Source: Phototrophicaceae bacterium | GTDB taxonomy: Bacteria; Chloroflexota; Anaerolineae; Aggregatilineales; Phototrophicaceae | Direction: 5' to 3' | NCBI GenBank assembly: GCA_965223515.1 | Contig: CBDCWK010000001.1 | Span: 788,835-852,834 of the forward strand | Length of the DNA: 64,000 bases | Part shown: one piece after another, positions 1-50,987 of the stretch | Layout of the letters: each line of letters opens with the position of its first letter | How positions within the stretch are numbered: position 1 is the stretch's first letter | Notes under the pieces: generated by a model | What the model was told of the DNA's origin: nothing | The model's input: the letters and a program-made list of their open reading frames with translations, nothing else | Database searches by the model: none | Translations under genes and position numbers: made by a program

Positions 1-432
1 CCGCCGGGCGATATGCCGGCGCGAATCATCGACTACTGCCGCCGGACGGGACAACCTGCCCCGGCGACTGACGCCGAAGTCATGGCGACCGTTTACGTCA
101 GCCTGGCATACAAATACCGCTACGTGCTCGAGCAACTCATCGAGGTGTCGGGTCGGGCTGTCGACCGTTTGCATATCATCGGCGGCGGCTCGCGCAATGC
201 GCTGCTCAATCAGATGACGGCGAACGCTATCGGGCGGCCCGTGATCGCTGGACCGGCTGAAGCCACCGCTACCGGCAACGCCATCGTGCAGCTGATCGCC
301 ATCGGCGAATTGAGCGGCGTTTCTGAAGCCCGCGCGTTGCTCAGCGAATCTGACGAAAACCGGCTCTACGAACCGCAAGATAGCGCCGCCTGGGATGAGC
401 ATTATGCGCGGTTTTGTAGCTTGCTGGGCTAG
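1..432 (+). CDS. rhaB: Rhamnulokinase (FGGY carbohydrate kinase), C-terminal part; the 5' end lies outside the window
   Basis: The ORF is open to the window edge. HIIGGGSRNALLNQMTANAIGRPVIAGPAEATATGNAIVQL matches the conserved C-terminal segment of RhaB/FGGY kinases. It sits directly upstream of a sugar ABC transporter. Confidence 0.8.
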   Translation, partial: PPGDMPARIIDYCRRTGQPAPATDAEVMATVYVSLAYKYRYVLEQLIEVSGRAVDRLHIIGGGSRNALLNQMTANAIGRPVIAGPAEATATGNAIVQLIAIGELSGVSEARALLSESDENRLYEPQDSAAWDEHYARFCSLLG

Positions 433-1998
433 GTGAACGAAATCGCCACATTGGGAGTCCAACACATGGCCGACGCCTTGCTTGAAATGCGGGGAATCGA
501 CAAGCGCTTTCCCGGCGTTCATGCCCTGAAGGACGCGCATTTTGATGTGCGGCGTGGCGAAGTGCATGCCTTGATCGGCGAGAATGGCGCTGGCAAATCC
601 ACCCTGATCAAGATCGTCTCCGGCGTCTACCAGCCCGATACGGGCGAGATTCTGCTTGATGGGCAGCGCGTCGAATTCAGCAACCCGCGCGAAGCCCATG
701 CCGCCGGCATCGCTACGATTTATCAAGAACTCGGCTTGTACCCTGAGCTTTCAGTGGCCGAGAATATCTTCATGGGTCACGCGCCGACTATGAAGCGCTT
801 CGGCTTTCATGCCATAGATTGGGAGGAGATGGAAGCGCAAGCAGCCGCCCTTCTGGCGGAGCTCAATATCCACGACCTTGATGTCGGCGCCAAAGTCGGC
901 ACGCTAAATGTCGGCAATCGTCAGCGCGTGGAGATTGCCAAAGCGCTCTCGCTTGATGCCCAAATCTTAATCATGGATGAGCCGACCGCCGCCCTGACCG
1001 AGAGCGATGTCGAGCAGCTTTTCAGCATCGTGCGGCTCTTGCGCGAGCGAGGCGTCAGCATCATTTACATCAGCCATCGCCTCAACGAAGTCTTTGAACT
1101 GGCCGACCGCGTAACCGTCCTGCGCGATGGCGAGTACATCGGTACGCAGGATGTCAAAGATACCAGCGAAGCCGAATTGATCAGCATGATGGTCGGGCGC
1201 ACTATCGAGAATCTCTTCCCGAAGCAGCCGGCCGAGATCGGCGAGGTCGTGCTCGATGTGCGCAATCTCAATCGGCCGCCACTGACCCGTGATATCTCCT
1301 TCACTGTGCGCGCCGGCGAGATCGTTGGCTTGGCCGGTTTGGTCGGCTCGGGCCGCAGCGAGACGGCACAGGTGATCTTCGGTGTCCTACCGGCAGAATC
1401 AGGCATGATCCTGCTCAATGGCGAAGAGGTCAAGATCAGCCGACCATCGGAAGCGGTGGATCATGGCATCGGTTACGTGCCGGAAGACCGTGGGCATCAG
1501 GGTCTGATCCGGGAAATGACCATTCGCGAAAATACTTCGATGGCGGTGCTGGAATCGGTATCGAACAAAACATTCATCAGCCGCGCCAAGGAGCGGGTGC
1601 TGGCCAATCATTCGATACAACAGTTGAGCATCCGCGCCACCGGTCCCGACCAAATCACCAACAAGCTCTCCGGCGGCAATCAACAGAAGGTGGTGGTCAG
1701 CAAATGGCTGGCGAGCAGCCCCCAGTTGCTGATCATGGACGAGCCGACGCGCGGCGTCGATGTCGGCGCAAAGTCTGAAATACATCGGCTGATGAGCCAG
1801 CTTGCGGCTGAAGAAGGCTTGGCCATATTGATGATCTCCAGCGAATTGCCCGAGATACTGGGCATGAGCGATCGCATTCTGGTCATGCGCGAGGGGCGCC
1901 TGGTAGGCCAATTCTCGCGCGAAGAAGCGACTCAAGAAATCATCGCCCACGCCATGATGAGCGAAGAAGTACGCCAAGCGGCCGGGGCCGGTCTATGA
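433..1998 (+). CDS. CUT2-type sugar ABC transporter ATP-binding protein with duplicated NBD
   Basis: Two Walker A motifs (GENGAGKST, GLVGSGRSE) and two signature motifs (NVGNRQRVEIA, LSGGNQQKVVV). GTG at 433 abuts the rhaB stop; an alternative ATG lies at 466. Confidence 0.9.
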   Translation: MNEIATLGVQHMADALLEMRGIDKRFPGVHALKDAHFDVRRGEVHALIGENGAGKSTLIKIVSGVYQPDTGEILLDGQRVEFSNPREAHAAGIATIYQELGLYPELSVAENIFMGHAPTMKRFGFHAIDWEEMEAQAAALLAELNIHDLDVGAKVGTLNVGNRQRVEIAKALSLDAQILIMDEPTAALTESDVEQLFSIVRLLRERGVSIIYISHRLNEVFELADRVTVLRDGEYIGTQDVKDTSEAELISMMVGRTIENLFPKQPAEIGEVVLDVRNLNRPPLTRDISFTVRAGEIVGLAGLVGSGRSETAQVIFGVLPAESGMILLNGEEVKISRPSEAVDHGIGYVPEDRGHQGLIREMTIRENTSMAVLESVSNKTFISRAKERVLANHSIQQLSIRATGPDQITNKLSGGNQQKVVVSKWLASSPQLLIMDEPTRGVDVGAKSEIHRLMSQLAAEEGLAILMISSELPEILGMSDRILVMREGRLVGQFSREEATQEIIAHAMMSEEVRQAAGAGL

Positions 1999-42700: not shown

Positions 42701-43306
42701 GCCTATCAGAACGAGGCTTACGCGCGGCGCTATATCGAGGATGTCAAGCGAGTTTACGCGGCGGAACAGGCAACTTGCCCCGGCGCGACCGACTTGAGCG
42801 AAGCCTTCGCCCGTTACCTCTTCAAGCTAATGGCATACAAAGACGAATACGAGGTGGCGCGCTTAAGCCTGAAGCCTGACCTGCGAGCGGCGATGAAAGC
42901 ACAGTTTGGCGAGCGCGCGCGCATGAGCTATCACTTGCAGCCGCCGTTCCTGAAAGCATTGGGCCTGAATCGCAAGATACAGCTGGGACGCTGGTTTGAT
43001 ATCGTCTATCGCGGCCTGCGCCCGCTGCGCTTTCTGCGCGGAACGCCCTTTGATCCTTTCGGCTACGATCGCGTCCGGCGCGTCGAGCGGGACTTGATCG
43101 CGCAATATCGTCGACTGATATTCGCCGCGCTGGAGGACTTAAGCGGCGAGAATTATGAGCAGGCAGTTGCGTTGGCGGCGCTTCCCGATATGATCCGTGG
43201 TTACGATGAGGTAAAGCTGGGCAATGTCGAGCGCTTCTGGAATGCGGTGCGCGCGCTGGGGTATGAGGACTTGCGCCAAAAGACCGGGTTGGCAAAACAG
43301 CGCTAG
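39770..43306 (+). CDS. Indolepyruvate:ferredoxin oxidoreductase family protein (fused alpha/beta, 1178 aa)
   Basis: N-terminal IMSGIQALARLPLDQ, TPP-binding GDGTFAHSG, ferredoxin-type cysteine clusters CEGCGDCGAVSNC / CNKDYTCLEGNCP. The length is typical of the fused Ior family. Confidence 0.9.
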   Translation: MIETKPPPTITEQRELKDFTLEDRYTVEDGRVIMSGIQALARLPLDQHRADKRRGLHTAGLITGYRGSPIGALDFALERIPGLLQEHHIRFIPAVNEDLAATAIMGSQTVNLLPEPKYDGVCGIWYGKGPGVDRSGDAFKHANLAGVGQYGGVLALAGDDPSCKSSTIPSHSEVALYDALMPILYPGSAQEILDMGLLGFALSRFSGLWVGVKIVTDVADEYSSVEVGHGRVNVIEPDFTVHGQPWRPTQNTALLSPYSVQQEKEIHDERLDAALAFARANRINEIAVPTATAWLGIIAAGKTWYDLRGALHDIGLDDDGLERAGIRLLKLGMIFPLERDILLEFATGLDEILVIEEKRSFIETFCKEALYGSGHTPIIVGKKDEAGKKLVKADNELDADEVLRILARRLNGRVDVPLLEGRLREINRLPDLGAIPIVARQPYFCSGCPHNRSTKVPEGSMAAAGIGCHTLAIMMDRNTAGVTQMGGEGANWVGAEAFTDIDHIFQNIGDGTFAHSGSLSIRQATAAGANMTFKILYNSAVAMTGGQEADGLMPVPEMTHLLYAEGVKKTIVVSADPGKFPPDTRWAVGAEVWERDRMEEAQLILRETPGVTALIYDQECAANLRRKRRRGFAADPALRIVINEAVCEGCGDCGAVSNCLSVQPVETEYGRKTQIHQSSCNKDYTCLEGNCPAFMSVIPAEMTQRSAPSYRVEQVIAEPHRQVNGAANILLMGIGGTGVVTSNQVLGTAAALDGYHVRSLDQTGLSQKGGPVVSNLKITAEPVDIAPKIGASATDAFLVFDVLTATASLNLIRANPQRSVAIVSTSKVATGAMVRDTTVEYPEADHLLEIINRQTRAGDNVFFDALGLAETLFGDHMMANMIVIGAAYQAGLLPMSASSIERAIELNGVKIEDNQHAFRAGRLAVADSGWLASVEVKAAGSLEVEVERSAAAQTLIDSLPAGGELKRLLEIRVPELIAYQNEAYARRYIEDVKRVYAAEQATCPGATDLSEAFARYLFKLMAYKDEYEVARLSLKPDLRAAMKAQFGERARMSYHLQPPFLKALGLNRKIQLGRWFDIVYRGLRPLRFLRGTPFDPFGYDRVRRVERDLIAQYRRLIFAALEDLSGENYEQAVALAALPDMIRGYDEVKLGNVERFWNAVRALGYEDLRQKTGLAKQR

Positions 43307-44904
43307 AGAGGGCTGCGTCGTCCAGCGATGAGCGCCTGACAGGCTTCTGTATGAAAGTGGTCGCGCGCCCACTTCGTCCGCTCTCGGGCATATTCCCGCG
43401 CCATTTTTGCTATGCTCTCGTCTTTCATCCAATTCACCGACTTCTTCTTGTTCGCGCGCAATAAGCCGCGCAGGGTCAGGTTGTCGCGCTTGCGGCGGTT
43501 GCAGGGACCGCAGAGCAGGATGCGATTGGTGATGTGATTCTTGCCGCCGTCAGCCTTGGGCTGGATGTGATCGAGCTGCATGAACTCGACTTCGAGGACG
43601 CGCCCGCAGCCAGCGCAAATGACGCCACCCGATGTGCCTTGCGCCTGTGCCAGGATATTCATCATGCCTTTATGCGATATTTTCTGCCAAGCCTGCACGG
43701 GACGCTGGATCTTAAGCCGGAAGCTGGGCGCTGCCATGTCGTTGTCGTCGCTGCGGACGGGCGGCGCCGTTTCGACATGGACGATATGCGGGAACATCAG
43801 GTTTTCGCCTTCTTCGGGCGTGACCAGCCACTCTTCCCGCAGGCGTTTCAGAACAATATCCTTGGCCCCGTCCCAAATGTCCATGCCGACCCATTGACGC
43901 TTGAGCTGCTCGGCGGCGACCGGTGTGGTGGCGCAGCCGCAGAAGGGGTCGAGCACGATGTCGCCTTCGTTGCTGCTGGCTTCGATAATGCGCCTATAGA
44001 GGGCGATCGGCTTTTGCGTGGGATACTTCTGTCGTTCACTTTTCGGTGCGTGCATCATATCCGGAATATCATCCCAGACAGAGCCATATCTGTACTGTTC
44101 TACGACCTTGCCATTTTCTTCTGGCAAATCATAACGAATCCTAATTGTCCCGGTCCTTGTCCTATAAATTCTTTCTTCACTTTCTAGTCGTTTAATTGAC
44201 TCATCTGTATAATCTCCGCGTGGCGCGGTTTTGAACCAACCACGCTCATCTTTTCTGAAACCTTTTTTTCTCGCATTCTCGACAGATAGCACATGGTTTC
44301 CCAATGGAGGATTAAATGTCCATTTGTTAGATCGTGAATAGAATAAAATCGTATCGTGATTTCTTGCATATTGTTTAGCAATACCTTTTGCACCTCTTGC
44401 TGCCTTGCCGTATGCCCACACAATCGCGTTGCGGAAACTCTTACGTCCGAATATAGCATCCATCAGACACTTCACATAAGCGTGCGCCGTATGGTCAATG
44501 TGCAGATACAAGCTACCGTCCTGCCGCAATACCCGCCGCATCTCCATCAGCCGCACACCAAGCCAGCACAGGAACGCGCCCATATCATCGCCATAAGCCA
44601 CCCGCGCCGCCGTGATGACTTCCCAAACGGCGGGCCAGTCGTCGATGATGCTGTCAGTCCATTCTTCATGCACATCCCGCTCCCAGGACCAGCGGTCTTG
44701 AAAGCGAGCGCCAGAAGCCAAGCTATCGGGGGTGGCGTGGAAATCGCGGTTCTTATTGAAAGGCGGATCGGTGGCGATGAGATGCACCGTCTCGCTGTTC
44801 ATGCCGCGCAGGAAATCGAGATTGTCACCGTGATAAAGCGTGCGGTTCTTGAAGTTGGGCTGCCCGCCGCCGTGATGAGAGGCGCTCACAGCAACCCCAC
44901 GCAA
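43303..44904 (-). CDS. DNA methyltransferase (N4/N6 beta-class, PF01555-like) fused to a C-terminal HNH endonuclease
   Basis: Motif IV IATDPPFN precedes motif I VLDPFCGCATT (beta-class order). The C-terminus is CAGCG...LDHIQPKADGGKNHITNRILLCGPCNRRK (HNH). TTG start at 44904; an alternative GTG is at 44889. Its stop overlaps the ior stop in the palindrome CTAG. Confidence 0.85.
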   Translation of the reverse strand: MRGVAVSASHHGGGQPNFKNRTLYHGDNLDFLRGMNSETVHLIATDPPFNKNRDFHATPDSLASGARFQDRWSWERDVHEEWTDSIIDDWPAVWEVITAARVAYGDDMGAFLCWLGVRLMEMRRVLRQDGSLYLHIDHTAHAYVKCLMDAIFGRKSFRNAIVWAYGKAARGAKGIAKQYARNHDTILFYSRSNKWTFNPPLGNHVLSVENARKKGFRKDERGWFKTAPRGDYTDESIKRLESEERIYRTRTGTIRIRYDLPEENGKVVEQYRYGSVWDDIPDMMHAPKSERQKYPTQKPIALYRRIIEASSNEGDIVLDPFCGCATTPVAAEQLKRQWVGMDIWDGAKDIVLKRLREEWLVTPEEGENLMFPHIVHVETAPPVRSDDNDMAAPSFRLKIQRPVQAWQKISHKGMMNILAQAQGTSGGVICAGCGRVLEVEFMQLDHIQPKADGGKNHITNRILLCGPCNRRKRDNLTLRGLLRANKKKSVNWMKDESIAKMAREYARERTKWARDHFHTEACQALIAGRRSPL

Positions 44905-44934
44905 GGCAGCAAGAAAAAACTAGAACATATATTC

Positions 44935-44951
44935 GGGGGGGGGGGGGGGGG
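44935..44951. repeat. Homopolymer G17 (C17 on the methyltransferase coding strand)
   Basis: 17 consecutive G, 31 nt upstream of the MTase-HNH TTG start and 108 nt upstream of the divergent dehydrogenase gene. Confidence 0.9.
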
Positions 44952-45059
44952 TAAACATCATCCTTTAAGTTAAGCGCAAATCAAGCGAATTGGCAAGTCA
45001 CTGTTCCTGCGCTACCATAGTCGCATCCATTCCATTCACGGCAAACGAGGACGAGCGCT

Positions 45060-45950
45060 ATGAGCGAGAAAATTGGGTTCATCGGCTTGGGCATCATGGG
45101 GCGCGGCATGGTCGACAACCTGATGCAAGCCGGCTTTGACCTGACCGTCTGGAATCGCACAGCCAGCCGCATGACGCCCTTCGTCGAGCGCGGCGCATCG
45201 GCGGCTGACTCGCCCAAAGCGGTGGCGGAAGCCTGCGACATCATCATCATCTGCGTCAGTGACACCCCCGATGTCGAGGCGGTTGTCCTGGGCGAGAACG
45301 GCGTGATTCATGGCGCCTCCGCTGGTGATCTGGTCATCGATATGAGCACCATCAATCCGGTCAACACGGTCGAGATCGCCAAGCTGCTCAAGGCGAAGGG
45401 CGTGGCGATGCTGGATGCGCCCATCAGCGGCGGCAGCGAGGGCGCGGCCAACGGCACGCTCAGCATCATGATCGGCGGCAGCGAAGCAGATGTGGCGCGC
45501 GCGACCCCCTGCTTCGAGGCGATGGGCAGCACCATCACGCACGTCGGCGAAGGTGGAGCGGGCCAGACTGTAAAACTCTCGAATCAGATTCTCTGCGTGG
45601 TGAATATGCTGGCAGCCAGCGAGGCGCTGCTATTCGCCCAGGCTGGCGGCGTCGACCTGGACAAAATGCTGCAAGCGGTGACCGGCGGCGCGGCCGGCAG
45701 CTGGATGCTGGCCAACCGCGGACCGCAGGTGATTCGTGATTATTGGGAGCCCGGCTTCTCGATTGATTTGCAGCAGAAGGACCTGCGGCTGGTGCTGGGC
45801 GCGGCCGATAAGATGGGCGTCCCGGTGATCGCCACGGCGCTCTGCTTCAATCTATATCGCACGCTGCAGGCGCAAGGTCTGGGCGGCGAAGGCAATCACG
45901 GCATCGTCAAGGCGCTGGAAGCCATGGCGGGGTTTGAGGCGCGGTTGTAA
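45060..45950 (+). CDS. NAD(P)-dependent 3-hydroxyisobutyrate / 2-hydroxy-3-oxopropionate reductase family dehydrogenase
   Basis: IGFIGLGIMGRGM Rossmann motif, DAPISGG, KLSNQ motifs. Confidence 0.9.
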   Translation: MSEKIGFIGLGIMGRGMVDNLMQAGFDLTVWNRTASRMTPFVERGASAADSPKAVAEACDIIIICVSDTPDVEAVVLGENGVIHGASAGDLVIDMSTINPVNTVEIAKLLKAKGVAMLDAPISGGSEGAANGTLSIMIGGSEADVARATPCFEAMGSTITHVGEGGAGQTVKLSNQILCVVNMLAASEALLFAQAGGVDLDKMLQAVTGGAAGSWMLANRGPQVIRDYWEPGFSIDLQQKDLRLVLGAADKMGVPVIATALCFNLYRTLQAQGLGGEGNHGIVKALEAMAGFEARL

Positions 45951-50165: not shown

Positions 50166-50786
50166 TCACGGGTAGGAGATGATGTAGGTCGCCGTCTTCG
50201 GGCTGCCGCCACCCTCGTATTGTGCTGAGACCGTGATCCGAATCTTGCCACTGTTCGGCTGGCCGCCCTTGCGCTTCGATACCGCGGTGCTGTTGTAGGG
50301 CGACACCCAGTGGACTCTCGTATACCCCCTGCCGCCGTGGTAACTCCTGGTCCCTCTATGGGTCACATCGAGCCTCCCGCATACCGAGCGATGGCCGAAA
50401 CCGCTGCTCCTGTTCGCTCCGCTGCAAGCCGTCCAAGTATTGACCGCGCTCTCATACTCCGCGGTCCAGGTGCGGGCAAAATGCCCGCGGAACTTGCCGG
50501 TGCCGGCGAAACGATTCACGACCCCTCTTAATGTCACTCGCGTCTTCCAGCCTGCTTCATTCGAGCAGTCCGCTTGGTTGCTCCCGCTCGGTTTAGTGCA
50601 TGTGATGCTTATGCTCCAGTCCGCGCTTTGATCTGATACGGCGCTCGTGTGAGACCGCGGGTTGCGGGCGCCGCTGTCATCATCCGCGGCCACGATGATC
50701 CCTGTCAGCAGTAAAGCTGCCAGACAGGCTCCCACAAGGCCGATTTTGGCAAGAACATGATACGATGGAAATAGCAAGGTTTTCAT
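50166..50786 (-). CDS. Secreted hypothetical protein
   Basis: N-terminal hydrophobic signal/anchor IGLVGACLAALLLTGIIVAA. RBS AAGGAG upstream. No recognisable domain. Confidence 0.5.
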   Translation of the reverse strand: MKTLLFPSYHVLAKIGLVGACLAALLLTGIIVAADDDSGARNPRSHTSAVSDQSADWSISITCTKPSGSNQADCSNEAGWKTRVTLRGVVNRFAGTGKFRGHFARTWTAEYESAVNTWTACSGANRSSGFGHRSVCGRLDVTHRGTRSYHGGRGYTRVHWVSPYNSTAVSKRKGGQPNSGKIRITVSAQYEGGGSPKTATYIISYP

Positions 50787-50907: not shown

Positions 50908-50918
50908 GGGGGGGGGGG
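50908..50918. repeat. Homopolymer G11
   Basis: 11 consecutive G, 121 nt upstream of the start of the minus-strand gene 50166..50786. Confidence 0.9.
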
Positions 50919-50987
50919 AAGCATGATAAAATACATAAAATATATTATACTCGCATTCGCTATGCTGTCAAAAAGAGGTTGAAGCGG

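Follow-up and report, generated by a model that had tools for sequence, protein, structure and literature searches.

A putative poly-C promoter switch at a methyltransferase-HNH gene of a Phototrophicaceae bacterium, and a gene family with repeats at its 5' ends

In a 64,000 nucleotide (nt) stretch of the genome of a Phototrophicaceae bacterium (Chloroflexota; assembly GCA_965223515.1, contig CBDCWK010000001.1, positions 788,835 to 852,834 of the forward strand; hereafter the window, with position 1 its first letter), we analyzed a minus-strand gene for a DNA methyltransferase fused to an HNH nuclease (43303–44889), which has a run of 17 C residues (C17) 45 nt upstream. Our reading, to which we give a probability of roughly 0.55, is that this is a switchable, self-contained methyltransferase-nuclease with a poly-C promoter switch, and that it belongs to a repeat-switched family. 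The original prediction, made from this locus, had proposed slipped-strand variable expression with a particular placement of the −35 and −10 hexamers; the idea of phase variation gained support from comparison with relatives, at whose 5' ends repeats of at least six independent kinds are enriched, and the family probably switches at random, whereas the proposed hexamer placement did not hold up.

The enrichment was measured on homologous loci (referred to below by L numbers, and their proteins by P numbers). A genome scan identified at least 583 of these, and the enrichment figures rest on the best 80, which were not selected for repeats. The 5' windows of these 80 loci, taken as −300 to +60 of the gene start, total 28.6 kb and hold eight simple repeats, versus three in 91.3 kb of other DNA outside open reading frames (ORFs), a density 8.5 times higher (p = 8e-4); compared with the remaining 694 kb, which has 10 simple repeats including those three, the 5' windows are 19 times denser (p = 2e-7). 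Six loci have G/C runs 5–10 codons after the start codon. That of L014 (G11) is in frame; those of L022, L048, L062, L066, and L074 leave the gene out of frame as assembled, with no alternative start, and a change of 1–2 nt restores the frame. We also observed in L062, from a Dehalococcoidia metagenome-assembled genome (MAG), a C19 run (L062:1211–1229) in an unrelated adenine DNA methyltransferase gene of the DUF1156 type, which it breaks into two frames (ORFs 685–1614 and 306–1322, minus strand), 2.8 kb from the methyltransferase-HNH gene with its frame-shifting C7 and with an IS1595 transposase between the two.

The second line of evidence is a promoter module whose consensus in the homologues is TTA-Cn-GAAYN4GTTC-TAnnnT. 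In the window its parts are:

44950–44955, minus strand: TTTACC, a predicted −35-like element; homologous modules conserve the TTA(C) immediately upstream of the tract
44935–44951, minus strand: C17 homopolymer (G17 on the plus strand), the simple repeat of the module
44923–44934, minus strand: conserved 12-nt near-palindromic box GAATATATGTTC (family form GAAYN4GTTC), a candidate operator
44917–44922, minus strand: TAGTTT, the best candidate for the −10 hexamer (TATAAT at this position in L105, TATAGT in L006)
44890–44916, minus strand: predicted 5' leader, short, in which a Shine-Dalgarno-like GGGG lies 5 nt upstream of the GTG start

The coding strand around the tract reads GATGTTTA-C17-GAATATATGTTCTAG, the simple repeat thus lying between TTTACC and the box with its adjoining −10 candidate. 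The modules of the window and its homologues compare as follows:

Window: TTA, C17, box GAATATATGTTC, TAGTTT
L004: no TTA, C11, box GAATGAATGTTC, TAAATT
L006: TTA, C9, box GAATAGATGTTC, TATAGT
L017: no TTA, C15, box GAATGTATGTTC, TAAATT
L106: TTA, C12, box GAACACATGTGC, TAATTC
L109 and L110: TTA, C16, box GAAACTTTGTTC, TGAATT
L105: TTA, CTCCCCCCA (C6, interrupted), box GAATAAATGTTC, TATAAT

The question raised with the original prediction, whether homologous fusions also carry homopolymers, is thereby answered: they do, as C runs of 9–17 in this conserved module, and with the interrupted L105 form included the run length spans 6 to 17. The hexamer 3' of the box fits TAnnnT in most copies and lies 15–30 nt upstream of the ribosome-binding site. 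Among nine relatives with an 'MSA..GG.PNF' N-terminus (the window gene and eight others) the box is present in 9/9 and a repeat in 8/9. The stricter box pattern GAATNNNTGTTCTA occurred only beside such repeats in all loci examined; the looser GAAN4TGTTC was also found inside unrelated ORFs, but within methyltransferase promoters each copy has a repeat next to it. The repeat need not be poly-C, e.g., (TTCC)11 comes after the box of L100, and L104 has (CA)25 after a perfect GAACAAATGTTC; in L022 the module is inverted, with C12. An Rfam search of the intergenic region returned no match. As a further observation, a tandem heptamer-like motif, CACAGAGGCACAGAG (2–3 copies of CACAGAG), lies 100–170 nt upstream of the module in L100 (3820–3850), L106 (1330–1360), and the upstream regions of L105 and L017, and is inverted in L004; as the motif recurs in these unrelated genomic contexts, the shared upstream unit is longer than the core promoter.

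The most informative homolog for promoter geometry was L105, the unexpanded form, which reads TTACTC-N18-TATAAT, the 3' part of its spacer being the box; the 18-nt spacing recurs in L006, with C9. We infer the −35 and −10 positions of the window promoter, and the tract lengths that would be ON or OFF, from such homologous modules. With TAGTTT as the −10 and TTTACC as the −35-like element, the C17 allele would have a 26-nt spacer, so the allele as assembled is predicted to be OFF or weak. The original prediction had instead placed the −10 at TATATG, with the homopolymer filling the space from TTTACC. On that geometry the C run would fill an 18-nt spacer, C17 would be at or near the ON optimum, and a change of one C would switch the promoter off, as in Neisseria porA or opc. 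In the window the arithmetic of that proposal is correct (TTTACC followed by C15 and GAA gives 18 nt before TATATG), yet we consider it very unlikely: TATATG does not have the conserved T at position 6 and fails a consensus scan, the equivalent position in homologous modules reads TGAATG, TAGATG, TGTATG, TAAATG, or ACTTTG, homologues with tracts of 9–16 would be left with spacers of 10–17 nt, and L105 has a perfect TATAAT directly 3' of the box, 18 nt from TTACTC.

Returning to our reading, the promoter would have the order TTA(C) −35-like element, C run, 12-nt box GAAYN4GTTC, TAnnnT −10, and a leader of ~20 nt, the C run acting as a hypermutable repeat within the −35/−10 spacer. About 7–9 C residues would give a spacer of 16–18 nt, as in L105 and L006, and longer runs would push the −35 out of register, such that slippage would switch or grade transcription at random. 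Other family members would reach the same end by different promoter repeats, or by G/C runs just past the start codon that shift the frame.

The G17/C17 run is present at 44935–44951, and we gave particular attention to whether it is authentic, as it had been noted at the outset that a run of G might be a sequencing or assembly artefact, e.g., poly-G from two-colour chemistry. G/C runs of 10 or more gave 10 overlapping matches in the window versus 0.10 expected, all within two tracts, these being the G17 tract and a G11 tract (50908–50918). The locus was present in two public runs, X1 and X2, as Logan contigs, which are assemblies and not reads. In X1 a 911-nt contig with a depth of ~11 spans 44785–45600 with zero differences, including G17; in X2 (depth ~26–34) the contig stops exactly at 44952, and 44810–44951 (142 nt on the gene side) is uncovered. 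This break at the very edge of the tract is what an artefact might leave behind; the G11 tract assembles identically in X1 and X2, which makes the X2 break particular to the long tract, and this break fits length heterogeneity and poor read-through alike and proves neither. Poly-G chemistry artefacts occur at read ends and not between unique flanks. The G17 run is internal with unique sequence on both sides, is reproduced in the independent X1 unitig assembly, and has counterparts in homologous promoters, which have a C run in exactly this place in independent assemblies of both short and long reads; an artefact is thus so improbable that we rejected it. We observed that contigs with family members often break off within or at a repeat, e.g., L108 starts inside a C run (L108:1–3) and L101 inside (TTCC)n (L101:1–30); L107:1–31 starts with Nextera adapter sequence and is a chimeric contig end.

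The same module was found before genes of another kind. A metagenome scan for C7 or more followed by the box gave 19 contigs. In eight of these (MKWU01 contigs, Ga0209020, and Ga0209543) the module is present, its usual form being GTTA-Cn-GAATAAATGTTC-TAnnnn (n = 8–30). Where the downstream ORF could be read, it encodes a very large secreted repeat protein and starts 30–47 nt beyond the end of the box. These matches (L081–L083, L089, L090, L093, L094, and L099, with C8 to C30) are on GC-rich metagenome contigs, and the secreted repeat proteins behind them are up to 1963 residues long, with motifs like DFALARYNxDGxLDxxFG. Two of these contigs, L083 and L090, are identical over 722 and 1037 nt and their sole difference is C18 versus C22, which is direct evidence of length change in the tract of the poly-C module. 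A further set of low-GC metagenome matches, some from the human gut (L084–L086, L088, L092, L095, L096, and L098), was set aside as probably chance resemblance in other organisms. No viral contigs with the poly-C and box module were found, which together with the metabolic neighbours of the window gene argues against a prophage origin.

Several observations weigh against a promoter switch at the window gene. The consensus scan found no sigma-70-type site on the coding strand at the tract, the −35-like TTAC is weak and is missing in L004 and L017, and our search for RNA runs holding the window gene found none, so that its transcription start is a predicted one. Most assembled tracts (11–17 before family genes, up to 30 before other genes) differ widely from the predicted ON length, and a simple two-state switch would thus need several slippage steps. 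The X1 contig gives the single length G17, and X2 offers only its break at the tract edge (142 nt missing, gene side). Moreover, some of the out-of-frame alleles are from MAGs assembled from long reads, in which the length of a homopolymer may be called wrongly. Some of these points would suit a repeat that is a passenger, drifting for mutational reasons in a mobile promoter module, with the window copy silenced or constitutively weak and no selected switching: tract lengths are scattered (6–30) and mostly distant from any single optimum, the assembled X1 contig has no within-sample heterogeneity, and the inverted module of L022 looks like decay. We nevertheless hold this to be unlikely, as repeats of at least six different kinds and positions are gathered at the 5' ends of a single gene family and are rare in other DNA, the intragenic tracts are within the first 5–10 codons, which is the classic position for switching, the ORF of the window gene and all of its conserved residues are intact, and the module is found upstream of large secreted proteins as well, which are the second typical class of contingency genes.

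The conserved box allows a further explanation, which would add to a repeat switch and not replace it: that GAAYN4GTTC is a Gram-positive-type LexA (SOS) operator and the gene is damage-inducible, like colicin HNH nucleases, with the repeat modulating its expression. The LexA of Dehalococcoides reportedly binds the Gram-positive box. GAAC-N4-GTTC is used as the Firmicutes consensus (PMC4234289). The window box matches CGAACRNRYGTTYC at 12/14 positions, L104 has a perfect GAAC-N4-GTTC palindrome, and the box lies in the promoter spacer beside the predicted −10, as repressor operators often do. Most copies, though, have GAAT rather than GAAC, the box also precedes secreted repeat proteins that are unlikely SOS genes, and the canonical GAAC-N4-GTTC was not found elsewhere in the window; no lexA or recA locus was found in the DNA examined. 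On balance SOS control seems distinctly unlikely.

Turning to the protein, the features of the window gene are:

43303–44889, minus strand: methyltransferase-HNH coding sequence, 528 residues from GTG at 44889 (the maximal ORF, from TTG at 44904, has 533)
43852–44787, minus strand: beta-class N6/N4 DNA methyltransferase domain (PF01555), from Pfam and structural relatives
44758–44769, minus strand: motif IV, DPPF (residues 41–44)
44023–44415, minus strand: predicted target recognition domain cassette (residues 159–289) between FRNAIVW and PTQKP, with a G+C content (GC) of 0.41 and a GC at third codon positions (GC3) of 0.33
43924–43944, minus strand: motif I, FCGCATT (residues 316–322)
43483–43617, minus strand: HNH nuclease domain, CxxC...DH...N...CxxCN, a Cas9/IscB-like HNN variant
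43303–43306, no strand assigned: CTAG, the overlapping TAG stops of the methyltransferase-HNH gene (minus) and an ior-like gene (plus)

The gene is predicted to encode a single-chain beta-class methyltransferase resembling Type III Mod, with a disordered linker and an intact HNH domain, in the order methyltransferase (motif IV), recognition domain, methyltransferase (motif I), linker, HNH. A methyltransferase and an HNH nuclease in one polypeptide had been originally predicted, and Pfam (N6_N4_Mtase, 4e-41; HNH, PF01844, 6e-10) and the motif order agree with this, DPPF being N-terminal to FCGCATT with the recognition domain between them. The 533-residue ORF of that prediction exists, but the start is GTG at 44889, judging by the MSAS... 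N-terminus of relatives and by the 528-residue length of P0001, the matching protein in the database. The nearest structures in PDB, by sequence and fold, are those of Type III Mod (EcoP15I and Mbo45V) and the beta-class MboIIA, CcrM, and RsrI; our structure model, with a mean predicted local distance difference test score (pLDDT) of 64.6, was of moderate confidence and served for fold class only. PADLOC recognises the methyltransferase part of the protein and not the rest. Methylation is probably of the N6-adenine type, motif IV being DPPF.

The HNH residues C425/C428, D440-H441, N455, and C460/C463-N464 are all present and are at least 90% conserved in alignment A1 of the family. The window gene had been termed an orphan methyltransferase, and it is indeed solitary, as no restriction or specificity gene was found among its neighbours and no Res within ~8 kb; the near-invariance of the HNH catalytic and zinc residues across the family makes the orphan label doubtful, and the protein may be a self-contained methylase-nuclease. 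We infer its nuclease activity and its role, which would be in switchable restriction and/or an epigenetic regulon. The neighbours are metabolic: the ior-like oxidoreductase (POR and DUF6537), whose stop overlaps that of the window gene in CTAG exactly as first described, a 3-hydroxyisobutyrate-dehydrogenase-like protein, ThuA, two GFO/IDH/MocA proteins, and IlvD.

The center of the gene had also been described as AT-richer than its ends, and this was borne out, with a GC of 0.36–0.43 over ~44025–44475 versus ~0.6 on both flanks. By GC3 the recognition domain, at 0.33, differs from the two arms (0.71 and 0.75) and from 21 other window genes (0.70 ± 0.06). In alignment A1 the first ~158 and last ~240 residues are nearly invariant, and residues 159–289 are hypervariable in sequence and length; among 110 proteins this central region falls into at least 17 groups, 69–152 residues long. 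Its GC is below that of both arms in 49/52 loci and its GC3 in 48/52. We take this hypervariable region to be the predicted recognition domain, and its composition to be foreign. The DNA of the window gene is a mosaic, its recognition domain being like those of L100, L102, and L003, and its C-terminal arm like those of L104 and L001. Exchange of a recognition cassette through the conserved arms would explain the foreign, AT-rich center, with specificity set by the central cassette and swapped by recombination through the near-invariant arms.

Three side observations belong here. L100 and L106, from related genomes, occupy the same syntenic slot between a 204-residue gene and an NTP_transferase gene, and differ in their recognition domains (523 versus 550 residues in all) and their promoter repeats ((TTCC)11 versus C12). 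In P0097, which is 80% identical over 69% of the query, the HNH is lost by a frameshift near residue 380, and the C-terminus is an Arg/Pro/Gly-rich out-of-frame tail (columns ~495–671 of alignment A1). Lastly, a 14-nt perfect inverted repeat, TCTTGCTGCCTTGC / GCAAGGCAGCAAGA, at 44395–44408 and 44901–44914 with its arms 492 nt apart, pairs the 5' leader with the exact junction of the N-terminal arm and recognition domain of the window gene; we estimated ~0.01 such pairs by chance in 2.3 kb. It is not in L100, and inversion joints were not seen in the contigs.

The family is very large, horizontally exchanged, multi-copy, and mainly of sponge-type Chloroflexota. A protein search gave 7997 matches at E ≤ 0.001 among 8000 scored candidates, the best 120 of which are nearly all methyltransferase-HNH fusions with 60–77% identity. 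Almost all of the best 80 loci are from MAGs of Phototrophicaceae, Aggregatilineales, and Dehalococcoidia, with one from Acidimicrobiales and one from Rhodothermales. Copies per chromosome reach five or more, and a paralogue of the window gene, P0029, is on the same 1.15 Mb contig; exact database look-ups of P0001 and P0029 found neither on record. No recurrent partner gene was found across 83 loci: among the recurrent neighbours considered as partners, BNR, ThiS, and ADP-ribosylglycohydrolase reflected synteny only, and the others were further methyltransferase genes. The latter, of the N6_N4 type, stand directly beside the methyltransferase-HNH gene in 8/83 loci (L002, L009, L015, L047, L048, and L056 among them), and some are sized like tandem paralogues. 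Our literature search on methyltransferase-HNH fusions, and on repeat-controlled genes in sponge symbionts, found nothing relevant.

Among known systems the closest likeness is to the phase-variable Type III mod genes, such as modA of Haemophilus and Neisseria. These likewise encode a beta-class N6-adenine methyltransferase fold (the best fold and sequence matches of the window protein being EcoP15I and Mbo45V Mod). In both, alleles are defined by a hypervariable central recognition domain whose 5' and 3' flanks are highly conserved, the 5' end has simple repeats, and one genome may have several copies. In a survey (PMC5909438) 17.4% of mod genes carry repeats, as compared with ~10–14% of our sampled family loci. 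Unlike in Type III systems, no res adjoins the window gene, and an HNH domain is fused to the C-terminus instead; the window repeat is in the promoter and not the ORF; and uncultivated sponge-associated Chloroflexota take the place of host-adapted pathogens as hosts. A regulon, which defines phasevarions, is putative here.

In the position of its repeat the window gene is more like Neisseria porA (poly-G) and opc (poly-C), the C-stretch of Bordetella fim2/fim3, and the poly-G of Treponema pallidum tpr, whose promoters likewise have a G/C homopolymer between an upstream element and the −10, its length setting promoter strength. As in such promoters, tract length varies between otherwise identical sequences (L083 versus L090). 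Unlike them, the family has a conserved 12-nt box between the tract and the predicted −10, and the tracts observed (9–17, up to 30) mostly exceed by far the length that a working spacer permits. The Type IIG/IIC enzymes (the poly-G-controlled ones of Campylobacter and Helicobacter, and the MmeI family) also combine nuclease, methyltransferase, and recognition domain in one chain, and some are likewise switched by homopolymers; in such an arrangement one recognition domain would set both activities and could be swapped safely. In the Type IIG enzymes known so far the nuclease is an N-terminal PD-(D/E)XK domain and the methyltransferase is of the gamma class, whereas this family has a beta-class methyltransferase and a C-terminal HNH, for which cleavage is a prediction.

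To our knowledge, nearly all examples of DNA methylases that switch on and off at random come from host-adapted pathogens. If the family does switch, this form of bet-hedging would also be used by the dense and phage-rich symbiont communities of marine sponges. A Type III-like Mod fused to HNH, instead of pairing with Res, would be a new architecture for this role, and a conserved poly-C promoter module shared with surface-protein genes would also be new. With thousands of clusters and several copies per genome, the family could shape gene flow, phage resistance, and methylation heterogeneity in symbiont populations. More broadly, and tentatively, as we would put it at somewhat below even odds, sponge-associated Chloroflexota, and by transfer other phyla of the same habitat, may carry an undescribed system of multi-copy Mod-like methyltransferase-HNH enzymes with reshuffled low-GC cassettes, random repeat switching, and a portable poly-C module that also drives secreted repeat proteins, amounting to a phasevarion-like system or phase-variable restriction in uncultivated mutualistic symbionts. 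As the repeats break assemblies and create apparent frameshifts, annotators will meet genes of this family as 'pseudogenes'.

The window has one further tract of some interest, the G11 run at 50908–50918 (C11 on the minus strand) that served above as a control. It lies ~20–30 nt downstream of a perfect sigma-70 promoter, TTGACA-16-TATAAT (50944–50971, minus strand), in the 5' leader of a gene (50166–50786) for a 206-residue signal-peptide protein with no Pfam match; the GAAYN4GTTC box is absent there, and the tract has the same length in X1 and X2.

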